A DNA stretch of 64,000 nt, taken from the sequence record OL451225.1; one strand, 5' to 3'. Below, piece by piece: positions 5,807-57,717 of the stretch. The translations under genes were made by a program, and so were the position numbers. Position 1 is the stretch's first letter. Each line of letters opens with the position of its first letter. Source of the DNA: Escherichia phage P896. A model generated the notes under the pieces. The model was not told where the DNA came from. It did not search any database and saw only the letters and a list, made by a program, of their open reading frames with translations.

Positions 5807-6241
5807 TTAATCTCGCTTCATGAAAGCATTAAAAATCTGGTCATCAACTGAATATACAGGGGTTTCCAGAAGTTTCAAAAGACTGTTTTTGATGTACTTA
5901 CCCGGGATACCCTTAACAATACTGTCATTCAACTCATTATCAGGGTTGATGTCTTTAAATTCAAACCCGTCAAACTCAACCTTGTCAGGAATACCGTCAG
6001 CGAAAAAATAAACCAATTGGTGCATTGTATTGCGCGAAAATAATTTAGACTTGACCGCAATAAGTTCTTGCCAATGGTTTAATTCTTTGTTAAGAAGTTT
6101 ATGAGCAAACGTAATTCTATTATCACTATCAACAAGAAAATAACCCAGGTATTGAATCTCGTCGCTCCAAAACACCCTGTATGCCTGCGCATTTGGATTT
6201 TTACAACGAAGTTTTTTGATAACCAAATTTCTGTTAATCAT
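5807..6241 (-). CDS. Hypothetical protein (144 aa), paralog family ending DDQIFNAFMKRD
   Basis: Start set at MINRNL (TAAAATG coupling to sp); shared C-terminus with 5446..5805. Confidence 0.55.
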   Translation of the reverse strand: MINRNLVIKKLRCKNPNAQAYRVFWSDEIQYLGYFLVDSDNRITFAHKLLNKELNHWQELIAVKSKLFSRNTMHQLVYFFADGIPDKVEFDGFEFKDINPDNELNDSIVKGIPGKYIKNSLLKLLETPVYSVDDQIFNAFMKRD

Positions 6242-6242
6242 T

Positions 6243-6536
6243 TTATTCACCTGTAACCCATTGAACAATTTTGCTATTGTCAAATGAAGCATCGCAATAC
6301 AGAATATAGTTATACTGCATAACGTCACCAGAAGACAATTGGTCAGATACTTCTTTAACCATATCAGGGCGGTCACGTTTGGTTATGTTCATGATATCAG
6401 CACGAATCTGGGTTTCAACTTCAGATTGCTCTGCTGTCATAGACCATTCACAAAGGTTTTTATCAAGCCCAGCAGTAACTGGAGCTGTACCACATGATGC
6501 TACGGTAAGAATTGCTGCAATAATTAACTTTTTCAT
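6243..6536 (-). CDS. sp: Spackle (Sp) periplasmic superinfection-exclusion protein
   Basis: 97 aa; signal peptide; LCEWSMTA...VETQI...DIMNI.KRDRP...MQYNY.LYCD matches recalled T4 Sp (61.3). Confidence 0.8.
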   Translation of the reverse strand: MKKLIIAAILTVASCGTAPVTAGLDKNLCEWSMTAEQSEVETQIRADIMNITKRDRPDMVKEVSDQLSSGDVMQYNYILYCDASFDNSKIVQWVTGE

Positions 6537-6600
6537 AATGTTCTCCTCAGTAGTTGATATGGATAATATACTGCATTATCCCTTTGATGTAAACTGTTAT
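6537..6600 (-). promoter_or_regulatory. T4-type early promoter + conserved leader (family A)
   Basis: Minus strand GTTTACA...TATATTATCC...ACTACTGAGGAGAA-ATG. Confidence 0.6.
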
Positions 6601-6800
6601 TTTTCGTTAGAACGATAATCACATTCAAAAACTTTATTGTCATTAACAAAGGCTTTAACCAGCGCATTATTCACTTCTGCATACTGCACTGTAACCCATT
6701 CAATCATATTTTTGTCACTGACATCCAGCGCGGTTTCTTTGGTAAACATATTACCATTTTCAAACCAACCAATAAACAATACGTTCTCTAATTTATACAT
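6597..6800 (-). CDS. dmd: Dmd antitoxin (discriminator of mRNA degradation, anti-RnlA/LsoA)
   Basis: 67 aa; GWFENGNMFTKE...QYAEVNNALVKAF.ND.KV.E.D matches recalled T4 Dmd (61.5). Confidence 0.8.
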   Translation of the reverse strand: MYKLENVLFIGWFENGNMFTKETALDVSDKNMIEWVTVQYAEVNNALVKAFVNDNKVFECDYRSNEK

Positions 6801-33423: not shown

Positions 33424-34269
33424 TTAATCCTTAAGAAGATTTAGGATATCGATATATTTCTGACGTTCAGCCTTGGCTTTAGCATTCAGACCGGAGAGTC
33501 GGAAAATCTCATCATCTTGTTGTTGAATTGTAACATTCAAGCAAGTAAGCAAATTGCTAAAATACTCAATCTGGGCTTGATGCTTCTCATTGCTTCGCAC
33601 TGGAACAGGTTCCATTTTAGGAGCTTGTTCTGAAGAGTCTTCAGCCAGGTCTTTAATTTTATAAAGTTTAATACGCTGACCTGCTCCAGTTTCGGCATCA
33701 CCAAAACTAAGAACACCATGCTGTTCTAATTCAGACAAGGCCAATCGGAGATGGAACTTCCAGTTGTCATATTGACAACCACTGTAATGGGAAATGGTAT
33801 ACTCATTTTCATTTCTGGGGTGGTTAACAATACTAAAGATAATCCAATCACCCGAACCATTGGTTTTAAAGGTCATTTGTTTATCTTGACCTTTTGCAAG
33901 GCGAGCACCTAGTGCTAGTAAACGTCGTTGGTTGGCATGAAGGTCTTTAACCACTTCATCAAACGTCATGGTGTTAATCGCACGACCATAAAGGTCGTAG
34001 CCTTTGTTATATTTTTTAAGAATAATTTTGGCATTAGCACGAGACAACATACCTGTTTTACGAAGAGTTTTCATGACTCGGTCTTCTAACGTAAACGAAC
34101 CTTTAGTCTTGTCAAAGATTTTAGTGAAGTCATTTTTAACAGTACAAACATTGAACTTGTCCCACATCATATATAGAACCTTTTCAACCACTTCTTTAGA
34201 ACTCGGGATACGACCAAATTTAATAACTTTTTTAACTTCAGAACGAATTTCATTAATTGCTTGTGACAT
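33424..34269 (-). CDS. Hypothetical protein (281 aa)
   Basis: Long ORF, no motif recognised. Confidence 0.65.
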   Translation of the reverse strand: MSQAINEIRSEVKKVIKFGRIPSSKEVVEKVLYMMWDKFNVCTVKNDFTKIFDKTKGSFTLEDRVMKTLRKTGMLSRANAKIILKKYNKGYDLYGRAINTMTFDEVVKDLHANQRRLLALGARLAKGQDKQMTFKTNGSGDWIIFSIVNHPRNENEYTISHYSGCQYDNWKFHLRLALSELEQHGVLSFGDAETGAGQRIKLYKIKDLAEDSSEQAPKMEPVPVRSNEKHQAQIEYFSNLLTCLNVTIQQQDDEIFRLSGLNAKAKAERQKYIDILNLLKD

Positions 34270-34332
34270 AATAATTTCCTCAATAGATTAATCAAAGGTC
34301 AGAACCATTATACCATCCTTGGTATAAAGCGT

Positions 34333-34857
34333 TTATGCGAGAACCGTCTTTAAACGCTCTTCAAACTTCTGAAGGAGTACCTGGCGCTCTGCTCTTTGTT
34401 TGGTATAGGTTTCAATACGCTCTGAAGTGAGATTGTATTGTTCATTAACTGATTCCCTCATGAATTCAGGAATCTCTTTACACGCCTTGATTTCATTGAA
34501 CTTATCAAGCACCGCTTGTTGTTCAGCAATCAGACCATCATAATATTGGATATCTGATTTGATGTTTTGTACATCAGATTCAGTAGGCATATTTTTCTTC
34601 GCTCTTGTCGCTTGATATTCTGCATTAGTCTCTCTTGACCAGAACAAAGAGCGGTTTTTGTTGGTGTTTTTATACACATCAACAATACCAACTGAATCAA
34701 CAGTCACAATCCAGTTCCAGGCGTTTTTATAAGTCTGACCACCTGATACTGTAATCTCACCTGCACAAGCAACATCATTAAAGAACTTGCTTTGCGCTTC
34801 TGATTTAAAATTACCATTATTGTAATTAATCAGATTAAAGATTGATTTTGCGTCCAT
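34333..34857 (-). CDS. Hypothetical protein (174 aa)
   Basis: ORF track; family B promoter upstream. Confidence 0.6.
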   Translation of the reverse strand: MDAKSIFNLINYNNGNFKSEAQSKFFNDVACAGEITVSGGQTYKNAWNWIVTVDSVGIVDVYKNTNKNRSLFWSRETNAEYQATRAKKNMPTESDVQNIKSDIQYYDGLIAEQQAVLDKFNEIKACKEIPEFMRESVNEQYNLTSERIETYTKQRAERQVLLQKFEERLKTVLA

Positions 34858-34925
34858 TTTATTCTCCAGTATTTGGTAACTCAGTATGGGAACATTATAC
34901 GTCTATCCCCATACTATGTACACAT
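34858..34925 (-). promoter_or_regulatory. T4-type early promoter + leader (family B)
   Basis: Minus ...TGTACATAGTATGGGGATAGACGTATAATGTTCCCATACTGAGTTACCAAATACTGGAGAAT. Confidence 0.6.
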
Positions 34926-35228
34926 TTAATTAAAAGTTCTTTCAGTATTTTCACCACTGAACCAGACGCTCTTAACGGCTTGCTGGGCACGATGAAGCTG
35001 CTCTGCCATATAAACACCAAGGGCCTCGGCTTTACGTGTCCTGTGAGCTTCTGCGGCGACCATTTGCAGCTTATCCATCATGATAAGAGCTTTACATTTC
35101 TCCTTCAGAGCATATCGCTTCTTCTCTTCTGGAGTTTTGACCATTCCTCTTAACTTGTGCATTTTCAGCTTAAAATGGTCAGCAGATTTCAGACATGCAT
35201 CAATCATGTCAAGTTCATACTTCTTCAT
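34926..35228 (-). CDS. Hypothetical protein (100 aa)
   Basis: ORF track. Confidence 0.5.
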   Translation of the reverse strand: MKKYELDMIDACLKSADHFKLKMHKLRGMVKTPEEKKRYALKEKCKALIMMDKLQMVAAEAHRTRKAEALGVYMAEQLHRAQQAVKSVWFSGENTERTFN

Positions 35229-35234
35229 AATTCC

Positions 35235-35441
35235 TCACTTGCGACGACGTTTTGGTAATGGTTTAGGGAAGAACATTGCTTTACCTGCAGGGGTCAAAGT
35301 CACACGCAAAGCATTACCAATACCAAGGGATGCTTTAACCAGACCTTTGGCTTTTAACTCACCAAATGCTTGACGTTGTTCAGGGTCACGAGTGTTAACC
35401 ATCAGACCTTTTTCACCAGCAGCTTTGATTAATTCTAACAT
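35235..35441 (-). CDS. Hypothetical basic protein (68 aa)
   Basis: ORF track. Confidence 0.5.
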   Translation of the reverse strand: MLELIKAAGEKGLMVNTRDPEQRQAFGELKAKGLVKASLGIGNALRVTLTPAGKAMFFPKPLPKRRRK

Positions 35442-35550
35442 TTTATTCTCCGTTTGTTTATTTGGTAACTCAGTATGGAATCATTATGCCTCATGACCAT
35501 CTGGTTGTACATTACTTTTTAAAATAAAAAAGGACCCCGAAGGGTCCTTA
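35442..35550 (-). promoter_or_regulatory. Terminator hairpin + early promoter/leader (family B)
   Basis: AGGACC-CCGAAG-GGTCCT hairpin (35525-35545) then TGTACA...CATAATGATTCCATACTGAGTTACC. Confidence 0.6.
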
Positions 35551-35554
35551 GAAT

Positions 35555-36565
35555 TTAACGATAATAGGAATTATGGTTGTCAAGATATACCTCTTCAACA
35601 AACTTGTCCCAGAACTTCATGTCCACCTTCGCAGGCATACCGTTCTTAGCAGCCTGAATGGCCAGGACTTCAACTTCATCGACGGTATTTTCCAACAGGC
35701 CTTGGACTACTTTAAAAGGCATATCACCAGCTTTTATTGCTTTAATAACAGAAGCATTTTTAAGCGGATAAACCAAATCGCCGGTTTGATAGATTTCCTT
35801 CAACTGGTATCCAGCACGATAAGCATGGCTCAGAGCTTTCCAGTCAATACCTTCATTGGCTTCTGCCTTACGAGCACGTTCACCATATTCGGCATCGAGC
35901 TTATTCAGAGATTGCTTGAGCTCGATTAAAGACAGGGTGGTTTGGTACTTACGTCCAAGAACAGTATAGAACGTTTGAGGACCTGTTTTCTCGTGGTTAT
36001 GGAATACCCATTCACAGAACTCATTTTCAGGGAGTCTGTGTTTGATATCTTCTACCTTAGTGCGACGTTGCTTAGTCGAACCGTCTTCTTGATAATCGAC
36101 CCACTGTTCAGGAATCTGGTTAACGATTGTCAGTACACCACGCAGTGCAGCCAATCGAGAACCTTTAACACCATATTTGGAAGCTTGCTTACGGACATAC
36201 CCCAAATAGGCTTTCATGTTAGTTGTATAGAACCGCGAACGGTTATCCTGAATAAACTTCCATACATCTGGTAAATCGGATTTGACAACCAGGTCAGCCG
36301 GTGTGTGAATCATGTCCAGGGCAACGGTTTCGCCATCGGCTGCCAGTTTAAAGAAATATTTCAGACTATAAAGTTCATGGTCAACATCATCTTTTGTATT
36401 TTTGGTAGCCGTGTTATTCGTGTTCAGGTTTGTATGGTTCATCGCGGTTCCGAGCAGGATATCTCGCGGATGAGGAACGAAGATTTCTTTAAAATCAACA
36501 TCAGATTCCGGAGTACTTGTTCCATAAAGGTGGGAGCCAAAATATCCCTTCATAACAGTTCTCAT
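35555..36565 (-). CDS. Pol-beta-superfamily nucleotidyltransferase-fold protein (336 aa)
   Basis: N-terminal GYFGSHLYGTSTPESDVDF = G[SG]-x9-13-DxD NTase signature; ATGA-coupled to upstream multi-TM gene. Confidence 0.6.
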   Translation of the reverse strand: MRTVMKGYFGSHLYGTSTPESDVDFKEIFVPHPRDILLGTAMNHTNLNTNNTATKNTKDDVDHELYSLKYFFKLAADGETVALDMIHTPADLVVKSDLPDVWKFIQDNRSRFYTTNMKAYLGYVRKQASKYGVKGSRLAALRGVLTIVNQIPEQWVDYQEDGSTKQRRTKVEDIKHRLPENEFCEWVFHNHEKTGPQTFYTVLGRKYQTTLSLIELKQSLNKLDAEYGERARKAEANEGIDWKALSHAYRAGYQLKEIYQTGDLVYPLKNASVIKAIKAGDMPFKVVQGLLENTVDEVEVLAIQAAKNGMPAKVDMKFWDKFVEEVYLDNHNSYYR

Positions 36566-37014
36566 TTTTTGTCCTCGAAGTGGATTACCGGACAGACCTT
36601 AGATTTACGAGCTTTAATGTACTGGATAACAATGTTTTCTTTAATTTCCTTTCCTTCACGTTTAGCTTTAATTAGTTGCCATTCCTTTTCTTCTTTACGT
36701 AAATCATACCAGGCCCATAAACTCATTATACAATACACAATACCAACGGCTACCGCTAGAATAAGGGCCAGTGTAACCAGTCCTAAAATAAAACCTAAAC
36801 TTAAACCAACAGGAGTACTCAATACAAAGAAATGCTCTAATACACCAGCACCTGCAACAGTTAAGCCGAAAATAGTACTACCTGCAAGCACAGAACACAT
36901 AAAGCACGCCCAAACCATTTTCCAGAAGTATGCGCATAATGAGCGCGGACGCGAATAACTGGCATAAAAACGGTCGTGTAGTTTAACGTGCCAAGAGTTT
37001 GTATTGATAATCAT
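36562..37014 (-). CDS. Multi-pass membrane protein (150 aa)
   Basis: Three or more hydrophobic helices, basic C-terminal tail. Confidence 0.6.
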   Translation of the reverse strand: MIINTNSWHVKLHDRFYASYSRPRSLCAYFWKMVWACFMCSVLAGSTIFGLTVAGAGVLEHFFVLSTPVGLSLGFILGLVTLALILAVAVGIVYCIMSLWAWYDLRKEEKEWQLIKAKREGKEIKENIVIQYIKARKSKVCPVIHFEDKK

Positions 37015-37024
37015 AATATTTTCC

Positions 37025-37585
37025 TTAAGAGTTCATAGTTGGGATAACAGAGTTCAGATAAGAGACTAAAACTTTTAGCTCGTCTTTAGTAAATACAACT
37101 TCACTTTCACCGTCATGTCTTTGGACAATGGACAACAAGTCACGGCCGTTATGTTGATGCACAGTCAGTTCAGTATTATAATCTAATTCCTCTTCATCGC
37201 CTTCAAACGTTTCGCTAGAGCGAATCAGTGCGTCTTGACCAGGGACTTTCCATTCAACTTCTGGCTTGCATTCTTCCTGGAACAGTTTGAAAATACAATC
37301 AAAGAATTTATCAGAATCGCTGATGCTCAGACATTCAATACCATTTTCTAAATTAAACCCGTTTTCGTTTTTATAGATATAGGCATACATATCATCATTG
37401 ATATCAACAGGAGCACTAGCACGACCATTAAGATAATCGTGTCTATCCAAAACCATTAAATCATAAAGCGGTTTAATATCAGCGATAGTCAGTACGATTT
37501 TATCGTCTTCTTGACAAAGCTCAATTGCGTTATTAACTACTTCAGCGGTCAGTTCGCCAAACAATTCAGTTGTTTCAATAATCAT
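37025..37585 (-). CDS. Hypothetical acidic protein (186 aa)
   Basis: ORF track. Confidence 0.55.
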   Translation of the reverse strand: MIIETTELFGELTAEVVNNAIELCQEDDKIVLTIADIKPLYDLMVLDRHDYLNGRASAPVDINDDMYAYIYKNENGFNLENGIECLSISDSDKFFDCIFKLFQEECKPEVEWKVPGQDALIRSSETFEGDEEELDYNTELTVHQHNGRDLLSIVQRHDGESEVVFTKDELKVLVSYLNSVIPTMNS

Positions 37586-37595
37586 TTTCTGTTCC

Positions 37596-37886
37596 TCAAC
37601 GGTTATGTTTTAAAATACTATAAAGAGCTTCTACTTGGCTTGCATCCAGGTAAATAACATCATCATCTTGCTCAATGGAAATCCCACCAGTATTACCTTT
37701 AACAAAATTACATTCGCACACTTCAACTGGACGGTATACGTCACCAACTGGATGCTCAGGCTCCAGAACAATCACACCATTTTCAGAATTACCACTTGGG
37801 TCATATAACATTACAGTTTCCTCGCTAACCATGAAAAGAATAAACCAATTAAAACAGGCCCTACAGCCATTGTTAACCAAGCCCAA
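37596..37886 (-). CDS. Hypothetical protein (96 aa)
   Basis: ORF track. Confidence 0.5.
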   Translation of the reverse strand: MGLVNNGCRACFNWFILFMVSEETVMLYDPSGNSENGVIVLEPEHPVGDVYRPVEVCECNFVKGNTGGISIEQDDDVIYLDASQVEALYSILKHNR

Positions 37887-37902
37887 GGTTCAAGATAGTA
37901 AA

Positions 37903-38160
37903 TCATCTCATGCTCCTATGCCAACAGTTTCTTGGCTCACGTTTAAAAATTTCATCATGCATTGATTGACAACCAACACAATATATCACGCCTTTAATCG
38001 CTTGTCTCCGCGCTTCAGGAATTTTTTCGTCGCAGTCAAAACAGAATTCAGCAGACTCCCTTTCAACTGCAACTTGTGCTCTCGCATGGGTGATAGCGGC
38101 CTGTACAACCGCTTCCATCTCTAACTGTTCAGCACCATCTTTTGCAAATCCAACAGCCAT
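37903..38160 (-). CDS. DksA/TraR-family C4 zinc-finger protein (85 aa)
   Basis: CFDCDEKIPEARRQAIKGVIYCVGC motif. Confidence 0.55.
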   Translation of the reverse strand: MAVGFAKDGAEQLEMEAVVQAAITHARAQVAVERESAEFCFDCDEKIPEARRQAIKGVIYCVGCQSMHDEIFKREPRNCWHRSMR

Positions 38161-38342
38161 TATTCTTTCAACCCATTCAGATAAGCAATTAATTCTTCTT
38201 TAGAGCTCTTTAAATCGCGCTCACATACTTCTACCCCAGAATATGAATAACCTTCGCAATGTTCAACAGCTAGTTCATAAGAGTTGATTTCAACATCACG
38301 AGCAAGTTTAAGGATTTTTTCAATCTGTTCAATAGTTAACAT
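38160..38342 (-). CDS. Hypothetical protein (60 aa)
   Basis: ORF track. Confidence 0.45.
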   Translation of the reverse strand: MLTIEQIEKILKLARDVEINSYELAVEHCEGYSYSGVEVCERDLKSSKEELIAYLNGLKE

Positions 38343-38346
38343 AATG

Positions 38347-38583
38347 TCACCAGTATTTGTTAATGTTAGAAATCAATTCTTGGACTTGTGTGTTTTTCAG
38401 CTTGCACCCGCAACTTTTTAATGTTTCTTTAAAAAGCTCAACATCTTTAAGTTGTTCCTTTTCTAGGCGGATTCTATATCCTCTGTAATCAGCAAATATG
38501 CTTCTGTCATCAAATATCTTAATTTCAAGAATATGATTATTGGTTTCATATTCCAATGAAACCATGGTATTTGTAAGTTTCAT
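38347..38583 (-). CDS. Hypothetical protein (78 aa)
   Basis: ORF track. Confidence 0.5.
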   Translation of the reverse strand: MKLTNTMVSLEYETNNHILEIKIFDDRSIFADYRGYRIRLEKEQLKDVELFKETLKSCGCKLKNTQVQELISNINKYW

Positions 38584-38786
38584 TATTCCACCACATATGA
38601 TAATGAGAAAATTGCTGATGAAAGATGGGTAGCATCTTCTTCACACAGTTCAAATGGAGCTTTCTGTAAGAGTTCAACCACTTCTTCATCAGTGACACTG
38701 TCCATAAAGATTGCATAATCATTAAGATAGATAACAACCTCATCACCAGTATTAACTGCATCAATCTTGATATTTTTAATTCTCAT
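38583..38786 (-). CDS. Hypothetical protein (67 aa)
   Basis: ORF track; family A promoter upstream. Confidence 0.5.
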   Translation of the reverse strand: MRIKNIKIDAVNTGDEVVIYLNDYAIFMDSVTDEEVVELLQKAPFELCEEDATHLSSAIFSLSYVVE

Positions 38787-38885
38787 TGTGTTCTCCTCAG
38801 TAGTTGATGGGATAATAGTACACCCTTTTTATGGTGATGTAAACCCCTAAATGAAAAAAGGTCCACCCGAAGGCAGACCTTTTGA
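38787..38885 (-). promoter_or_regulatory. Terminator hairpin + early promoter/leader (family A)
   Basis: AAAAGGTC-[12 nt]-GACCTTTT hairpin; GTTTACATCACCAT...TATTATCCCATCAACTACTGAGGAGAA. Confidence 0.65.
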
Positions 38886-38886
38886 A

Positions 38887-39270
38887 TTACTCTAGTGTTA
38901 ACAGATACTTAGTCTGAAAGAAAACTCCAACGATATCGTCCAGAGTCGATTGAATAGCCTTGGGTACAACTTTATAGACTCTTTCCGAGCTTTTAATCAT
39001 TTCATCTAAAAACAAAATTGTATCTTTCGGCAAGTCCGAGGCGGACGGTAATGCAGCTTTGTATTGTTTCCCGCTGTAACCTAACCATTGCTCACTGAAC
39101 TGGTCGAGTGGACCTTGGATTTCTGTGAAGTAGAAATCATAAGCTTTATGGCGGGCGTAACTTTTGGTTTCAAGATGGGCGGACTTAAAATAAGCCAAAG
39201 AGACTAACAACCACCCAATATATGAATCCACCTCAGACCCACGACCCGTTACGAAATCATCAAATTTCAT
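38887..39270 (-). CDS. Hypothetical protein (127 aa), rI.-1 position
   Basis: ORF track; adjacent to rI. Confidence 0.5.
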   Translation of the reverse strand: MKFDDFVTGRGSEVDSYIGWLLVSLAYFKSAHLETKSYARHKAYDFYFTEIQGPLDQFSEQWLGYSGKQYKAALPSASDLPKDTILFLDEMIKSSERVYKVVPKAIQSTLDDIVGVFFQTKYLLTLE

Positions 39271-39553
39271 CTTCCAATTTTACCTTCATTAATTTAGCGT
39301 ACTCTCTCGCCGCAGCTTTACCATCGCTTTTGCAGGTAATTTCAGTTTCGCATTGGCTTTTGTTGTTCCATTCAGTCTTGATAAACGCCCAGAACTGTTC
39401 GGATTGGTGCACGCTTGGTTCTTTGAATTGCGAATAAATCTTCATCGCACTATCTGCATATTGGGTAAACTTCCCCTCTGTTGCAGAGGACAGATTTGGG
39501 CCTAAACAACCCAGGAGTATTAGACTTAATGAAAGTCCTCGAATAAGGTCCAT
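39260..39553 (-). CDS. rI: Lysis-inhibition protein RI
   Basis: 97 aa; signal-anchor then SEQFW.F.KT....C.....C...AA.EYAKLM.VKLE resembling recalled T4 RI; upstream of tk. Confidence 0.7.
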   Translation of the reverse strand: MDLIRGLSLSLILLGCLGPNLSSATEGKFTQYADSAMKIYSQFKEPSVHQSEQFWAFIKTEWNNKSQCETEITCKSDGKAAAREYAKLMKVKLEDEI

Positions 39554-57564: not shown

Positions 57565-57641
57565 TGGTCGGGGTGGTGGGATTCTAACCCACAACCTACG
57601 GTTTAGAAGACCGTTGCTCTATACAATTAAGCTACACCCCG
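57565..57641 (-). tRNA. tRNA-Arg (anticodon TCT), CCA encoded
   Basis: Cloverleaf read by eye: acceptor CGGGGTG/CACCCCG, anticodon arm ACGGT-CTTCTAA-ACCGT, T arm GTGGG-TTAGAAT-CCCAC. Confidence 0.7.
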
Positions 57642-57643
57642 GG

Positions 57644-57717
57644 TGGCCCCATCCGGACTTGAACCGGAAACCTGCCAGTTATGAGCCGGATGCTCTAACC
57701 AATTGAGCTACAGGGCC
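57644..57717 (-). tRNA. tRNA with CAT anticodon (Ile-lysidine type as in T4, or Met)
   Basis: Acceptor GGCCCTG/TGGGGCC, D arm GCTC-AATTGGTTA-GAGC, anticodon loop CTCATAA, T arm TCCGG-TTCAAGT-CCGGA; directly abuts tRNA-Arg. Confidence 0.8.

Follow-up and report, generated by a model that had tools for sequence, protein, structure and literature searches.

RlaP nucleotidyltransferases of the Pol-beta superfamily were named by Burroughs and Aravind (2016, cited in PMC12776372) for their linkage to RNA ligases, and those encoded by phages have been predicted to restore nucleotides lost from RNA ends prior to ligation, for example after the action of RloC (Iyer et al. 2021, PMC7824862). Enzymatic activity has been shown for two Pseudomonas members of the family, PfRlaP and PaRlaP, which add one or two NMPs to an RNA 3'-OH, prefer Mn2+ and mimics of cleaved tRNA, show little NTP specificity and do not act on DNA or protein, RNA alone being labelled among E. 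coli macromolecules (Carruthers, Fatma and Huang, bioRxiv December 2025, PMC12776372). According to the same work, RlaPs extend RNA 3' ends by 1-2 nt, full-length tRNA-sized species included, and the Pseudomonas enzymes partly restore aminoacylation to a tRNA repaired with one nucleotide of the anticodon loop missing. The crystal structure of PfRlaP comprises a nucleotidyltransferase (NTase) domain, a helical domain and a C-terminal helix that packs back on the NTase domain. NrdC.11 of phage T4 is listed as a RlaP family member 'of unknown function', and a sequence-similarity network places it in cluster 5, whereas the Pseudomonas RlaPs belong to cluster 1a (PMC12776372). A minimal Pol-beta NTase is also known from the Hailong system (PDB 9dbh; Tan et al. 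2025), in which HalB, according to a review, primes poly-dA synthesis from one of its own tyrosines.

The nrdC.11 locus of phage P896

The window analysed here is a stretch of 64,000 nt from Escherichia phage P896 (OL451225.1), a T4-like phage of the Tevenvirinae, whose DNA in this region is approx. 90-93% identical to that of Escherichia phages 212, P479 and VR20 and of Shigella phage SP18. A preliminary description had delineated three ORFs, with an ATGA overlap between two of them, a G-S...DxD motif in the 336-aa product and multi-pass membrane and acidic proteins as its neighbours, all of which are confirmed in the sequence (Table 1). The 336-aa protein begins with MRTVMKGYFGSHLYGTSTPESDVDF and contains the motif, and the ATG of its gene (36565-36563) shares ATGA with the TGA of the 150-aa ORF. 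The acidic protein has a pI of 4.18 (40 D+E vs. 14 K+R residues) and is 33% identical to T4 MobD.1. By tblastn, the NTase turns up in 1535 phage records and the membrane protein in 782; these ORFs are real genes rather than chance reading frames.

Table 1. Features of the nrdC.11 region and other elements of the P896 window
Feature	Position	Strand	Remarks
336-aa nrdC.11 ortholog, RlaP-family (PF10127) Pol-beta nucleotidyltransferase	35555..36565	-	ORF as delineated in the preliminary description
NTase domain of the 336-aa protein	approx. residues 1-131 (36565-36173)	-	Contains G10-S11, D22, D24 and D62
C-terminal domain of the 336-aa protein, divergent	residues 132-336	-	Beta-sheet insert at approx. 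154-208
150-aa membrane protein, three predicted TM segments	36562..37014	-	phrog_944; stop overlaps the nrdC.11 start
MobD.1 (y05I) ortholog, acidic, 186 aa	37025..37585	-	Pfam T4_y05I_N (E=6e-37) and T4_y05I_C (E=2e-19)
Shine-Dalgarno sequence GAGGA, located 6 nt before the nrdC.11 ATG	36572..36576	-	Read from the sequence; within the 3' end of the membrane-protein gene
Intrinsic-terminator-like hairpin AAGGACCC-TTCG-GGGTCCTT, then T-run	35530..35549	-	A few bases past the nrdC.11 stop
Terminator-like hairpin (38883-38856), then sigma-70-like promoter match (38843-38815)	38815..38883	-	Consensus matches only
85-aa ORF with a CxxC...CxxC motif (CFDCDEK...CVGCQ)	37903-38160	-	Resembles a protein encoded at a comparable place in phage CC31 and annotated there as DksA/TraR-type C4 zinc finger
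Adjacent tRNA gene pair, tRNA-Arg(TCT) and tRNA-Met(CAT)	57565-57717	-	

The terminator-like hairpin at 35549-35530 would mark nrdC.11 as the final gene of its transcription unit. Judging from the signals listed in Table 1, this minus-strand unit of approx. 3.3 kb probably starts near 38815..38883 and ends with nrdC.11, an operon structure that we infer from consensus matches.

On sequence grounds, the 336-aa gene is the ortholog of T4 nrdC.11. The two proteins are of the same length and share 81% identity across all 336 residues (T4 NrdC.11, NP_049709.1), the gene occupies the same place between nrdC.9/.10 and mobD.1, and the RefSeq product name of the T4 protein is 'nucleotidyltransferase'. 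The question whether T4 carries a homolog, which the preliminary description had left to a BLAST comparison, is thus answered; no unrelated function is known for T4 NrdC.11 by which the NTase reading would be refuted, and its family assignment agrees with that of an NTase. The surroundings of the gene differ between the two phages. In T4, the homing endonuclease gene mobD lies directly upstream of nrdC.11 and the 150-aa membrane gene is missing, whereas the P896 region, unlike T4, has no nrdC.10 between nrdC.9 and nrdC.11; none is annotated there in SP18 either. NrdC.11 is the best-conserved protein of its neighbourhood (33424-39553, minus strand), with 82% identity to its RB18 ortholog and approx. 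81-82% to that of T4, compared with 31-35% for the membrane protein, MobD.1, NrdC.9 and rI and 46-68% for NrdC.6, NrdC.8 and rI.-1 against their RB18/T4 orthologs.

Two further observations concern the orthologs as a group. Close relatives differ in the central segment of NrdC.11 (approx. residues 140-215, the beta-sheet insert), of which three or more alternative versions exist in a mosaic distribution; in one homolog (P0075), termini like those of the window protein flank the centre of another clade, which suggests recombination inside nrdC.11. In addition, many orthologs in GenBank/UniRef (e.g., P0001, P0017, P0021 and P0063) are named 'thioredoxin' or 'HNH homing endonuclease', and the former label is also attached to the 100%-identical P896 protein. 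These labels appear to be annotation errors inherited from the gene names nrdC and mobD.

RlaP family membership and predicted fold

The Pol-beta NTase signature, i.e., hG[GS] and DxD followed by a third carboxylate on a later strand, is present in the 336-aa protein. The Pfam RlaP model (PF10127, 'RNA repair pathway DNA polymerase beta family') matches residues 8-134 with 44.5 bits, vs. a cut-off of 23 (E=2e-11), and PHROG 388 ('nucleotidyltransferase') matches the protein with E=9e-130. PF10127 is precomputed for all 120 of the 120 listed homologs, and a whole-library HMMER search with NrdC.11 retrieved 3087 cluster representatives at E<=1e-3. In 39 representatives of 34-51% identity, there is no change at G10, S11, D22 or D24, and the conservation of D62 is 90% or higher. 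When NrdC.11 is compared with 15 canonical bacterial RlaPs by hhalign, residues 2-131 align with 93.8% probability (E=1.7e-7), and D22, D24 and D62 fall on the RlaP catalytic aspartates. The short G-S/DxD motif can therefore be trusted, given the Pfam RlaP match, the match to the canonical RlaP profile and the predicted fold; together with the conserved catalytic residues, these bear out the earlier assignment of the protein to the Pol-beta superfamily. Another class of Pol-beta enzymes, the MNT/HEPN type VII toxin-antitoxin systems, was considered and rejected: the NCBIfam MntA score falls well short of the cut-off, and no HEPN partner bearing the Rx4-6H motif was found.

The fold was modelled with AF2. 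With a shallow alignment (A1, 65-96% identity), the pLDDT of the NTase domain stayed below 50; a second run, on diverse representatives (A2), gave a model with a pLDDT of 92.8 and a pTM of 0.76. In this model, an N-terminal alpha/beta NTase domain is followed by the small beta-sheet insert and a helical C-terminal domain. D22/D24 lie where strand 23-30 begins, and D62 belongs to strand 61-67. The model resembles the minimal Pol-beta NTases HalB, 3c18 and kanamycin NTase, with weak E-values in the Foldseek search against the PDB. Other close solved folds are lincosamide and aminoglycoside NTases and the protein AMPylator DrrA, and the matches in a BFVD fold search are phage 'nucleotidyltransferases'. 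Kanamycin NTase/ANT(4') and the NTase-like protein 3c18 are nonetheless different proteins (8-12% identity, TM-scores of 0.24-0.32), whose substrates are small molecules or unknown. cGAS, CD-NTases, OAS and CCA enzymes are absent from the fold-search match lists. Thus, of the NTase families against which a fold or profile comparison had been suggested, the minimal Pol-beta NTases were recovered, whereas the CD-NTase, OAS and CCA-adding families were not. A RlaP structure was not found in the PDB by sequence and profile searches, the PfRlaP coordinates being absent from the PDB copy searched.

The comparison with the RlaPs of P. fluorescens and P. aeruginosa shows both shared features and clear differences. 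The NTase domains are homologous and share G-S, DxD and the third Asp, and in both proteins, for NrdC.11 as modelled, this N-terminal domain is followed by a helical C-terminal domain. However, NrdC.11 has 336 aa, whereas the canonical RlaP neighbour taken for comparison has 262, its C-terminal half carries a beta-sheet insert, the Pfam model covers residues 8-134 only, and in T4-like phages the gene has no RNA ligase gene next to it. In profile-profile comparison, no alignment with canonical RlaP was obtained for residues 132-336, and NrdC.11 is therefore a divergent RlaP subtype. Because these C-terminal approx. 200 residues are unalignable even at the profile level, the substrate could differ from that of canonical RlaP.

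The membrane-protein neighbour

On the Kyte-Doolittle scale, the 150-aa protein and its close orthologs have three hydrophobic segments each; its PHROG match is phrog_944 'membrane protein' (E=1.3e-54). No Pfam family or known domain was found for it, and its homologs occur in phages only. Searched against all PDB sequences, the family profile matched unrelated ion-channel pore constructs best, with E=0.16, and did not match HalA. Within the family (36562-37014 on the minus strand of the window, L004:4501-4962, L005:4501-4953 and L167:5986-6408), the TM segments vary, and H9, P23, C27, Y29 and C141 are invariant in the N- and C-terminal (cytoplasmic) tails, which bear the motifs NSWHxK..P..LC.YF and KARK.K.CP. 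These residues might form a metal or redox site. A relocated T4 NrdC.7 was also considered as the identity of this protein and was rejected, as BLASTP shows no similarity and RB18 carries both genes.

The preliminary description had treated the NTase and the membrane protein as a translationally coupled module, a view that does not survive comparison across phages. Among 78 IMG/VR phage loci encoding NrdC.11 homologs, in which the membrane gene was sought by tblastn and with a family HMM, this gene directly abuts nrdC.11 in approx. 10 (the P896 clade and RB18-like and phiE142-like phages), lies 0.3-2.6 kb upstream with up to seven called ORFs between in approx. 30, and is undetectable in 38. 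The 38-62 kb region of T4 contains no homolog of it, the slot upstream of nrdC.11 being filled by mobD. Klebsiella phages account for 286 of the NTase records and Acinetobacter phages for 69, and the ten most frequent names obtained with the membrane query include neither genus. The membrane family also extends beyond T4-like phages to the Vibrio phages ICP1 and Va1; the 123-kb genome of ICP1, searched in six frames, gave no NrdC.11/RlaP match even at E<=10. Furthermore, in many loci nrdC.11 shares a 4-nt or 1-nt stop/start overlap with the preceding gene, which mostly encodes a non-membrane protein. Since the overlap is seen with many different upstream genes, the ATGA arrangement reflects generic dense packing of phage genes and not a dedicated pair. 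From its distribution and divergence, we conclude that the membrane gene is an unrelated, fast-evolving and lineage-specific neighbour in a hyperplastic early-gene region.

The junction immediately upstream of nrdC.11 looks like a hot spot for insertions. In T4, the HNH endonuclease gene mobD is located just upstream of nrdC.11 (L003:1430-2209), and at another locus a 267-aa ORF (L008:5198-6001) separates the membrane gene from nrdC.11.

RNA-repair context and possible functions

The genomic context of the cellular homologs was analysed in 80 bacterial and archaeal loci encoding full-length NrdC.11-type proteins (33-52% identity), whose neighbours were clustered and the cluster representatives scanned with Pfam. 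A canonical RlaP (approx. 260 aa, Pfam E=9e-71) is encoded immediately downstream, on the same strand, in 15 of the 80 loci; RtcB (E=2e-132) is found in six, TROVE/Ro60 in four and a Pnkp ligase in three. At least one repair-type neighbour within 4 kb is present in 20 loci, a methyltransferase neighbour being counted too. In phages, RtcB lies within 6 kb of a NrdC.11 homolog in three distant loci, and no RNA ligase or RNA-repair gene is adjacent to nrdC.11 in the P896 window or in T4-like phages. In SP18, pseT and rnlA are located at 136-140 kb, approx. 87-91 kb from nrdC.11; in T4, these two genes are not at 158-169 kb. As to gene order, the tandem of the two RlaP subtypes seen in bacteria (L085-L164, e.g., L136:5001-5954 and 5982-6770) often has RtcB, TROVE/Ro60 or Pnkp nearby.

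Of the functions offered in the preliminary description, a tRNA- or RNA-repair factor is thus the best supported, whereas a signalling synthase/effector pair finds no CD-NTase, OAS or cGAS signal and is at odds with the variable linkage. A module of the latter kind could be CBASS-like, with a nucleotide signal gating the effector, or Hailong-like, with oligonucleotides keeping a channel closed. The fold of the model recalls HalB, and in P896 the two genes abut; however, the pair is not conserved, T4 and 38 of the 78 loci having the NTase but no TM gene and ICP1 the TM gene but no NTase, and because each gene occurs without the other a synthase/effector module is not supported. CD-NTase, SMODS, OAS and CBASS families gave no Pfam match, and PADLOC gave none at E<=0.1. 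Nor was a conserved adjacent effector with a nucleotide-sensing domain found, the TM neighbour being absent or separated in most loci. Neither protein is related at the sequence level to HalB or HalA, HalB is a 217-aa oligo-dA synthase whereas the NrdC.11 family extends RNA, and the obligate HalA/HalB-type operon has no counterpart in NrdC.11 and its TM gene. Taken together, we regard a signalling or guard module as very hard to credit. A tRNA 3'-CCA adding or repair enzyme, serving phage or host tRNAs, is only slightly less improbable. Membership in the Pol-beta superfamily and the tRNA-Arg and tRNA-Met genes of the phage (Table 1) would suit such an enzyme, but the protein has no Pfam/NCBIfam match to PolyA_pol (PF01743) or to the body domains, and none is in the fold lists. 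Some T4 tRNAs need the host CCA-adding enzyme to mature, which argues that T4 has no CCA enzyme of its own. The properties of characterised RlaPs bear on both sides, as the addition of 1-2 nt to RNA 3' ends, tRNA-sized ones included, would be compatible with CCA repair, whereas the low NTP specificity of the Pseudomonas enzymes is not what it would predict (PMC12776372).

An anti-defence activity unrelated to RNA repair, in which the NTase would act on another substrate by nucleotidylating a host protein or a small molecule or by making a defence-blocking oligonucleotide, deserves more weight than these two, although it too is unlikely. The nearest solved folds include small-molecule NTases, DrrA and HalB, the C-terminal domain with its beta-sheet insert is peculiar to the NrdC.11 subtype, and the gene lies among host-takeover accessory genes and not beside pseT or rnlA. 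Against this, RNA was the sole E. coli macromolecule to be labelled by the Pseudomonas RlaPs (PMC12776372), the cellular homologs of the NrdC.11 subtype have their genes in operons with RtcB, Ro60 and Pnkp, and a context of small-molecule resistance or signalling was not found.

What the analysis shows for NrdC.11 is its orthology and family membership, the conservation of its catalytic residues, a predicted NTase fold and the RNA-repair context of its cellular homologs. From these, together with the biochemistry of the Pseudomonas RlaPs, we infer that the phage protein has an activity like theirs and a role in tRNA repair. Its most likely function, and one to which we assign a reasonable probability, would be to fill in the 3' ends of RNA, in particular tRNA, before ligation by the phage Pnk and Rnl1. 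In such a mechanism, an active site formed by G10-S11, D22, D24 and D62 with two divalent metal ions would extend the 3'-OH of damaged RNA by one or a few NMPs in a template-independent manner. Its substrate is expected to be mainly the tRNA halves left by nucleotide-excising host anticodon nucleases of the RloC type. The phage polynucleotide kinase (PseT) and RNA ligase 1, whose genes lie elsewhere in such genomes, could afterwards join the halves into a functional tRNA of full length. The nrdC.11-mobD.3 segment has been lost from T4 in the laboratory without loss of viability (PMC9825161); this dispensability fits an accessory counter-defence role, while lending it no positive support.

The idea of gap filling has already been published (Burroughs and Aravind 2016, cited in PMC12776372; Iyer et al. 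2021; Carruthers et al. 2025), and the gene itself is already known as a catalogued T4 gene and as part of a described enzyme family; what is added here is one more ortholog and evidence that its membrane neighbour is irrelevant. A more far-reaching proposal, which we put forward only tentatively, is that the NrdC.11 type constitutes a structurally distinct RlaP subfamily with its own C-terminal domain and that its phage members may be the third enzyme missing from the T4 tRNA-repair pathway, restoring the nucleotide cut out by RloC-like anticodon nucleases so that Pnk and Rnl1 can rebuild the tRNA. The repair of tRNA by T4 Pnk and Rnl1 is the textbook phage counter to RNA-targeting defence, and RloC-type nucleases have been proposed to beat it by nucleotide excision. 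If NrdC.11 does fill this gap, its gene, conserved in over 1500 phage records, would make the repair pathway complete, which would also explain why it is the most conserved gene in a hypervariable region.
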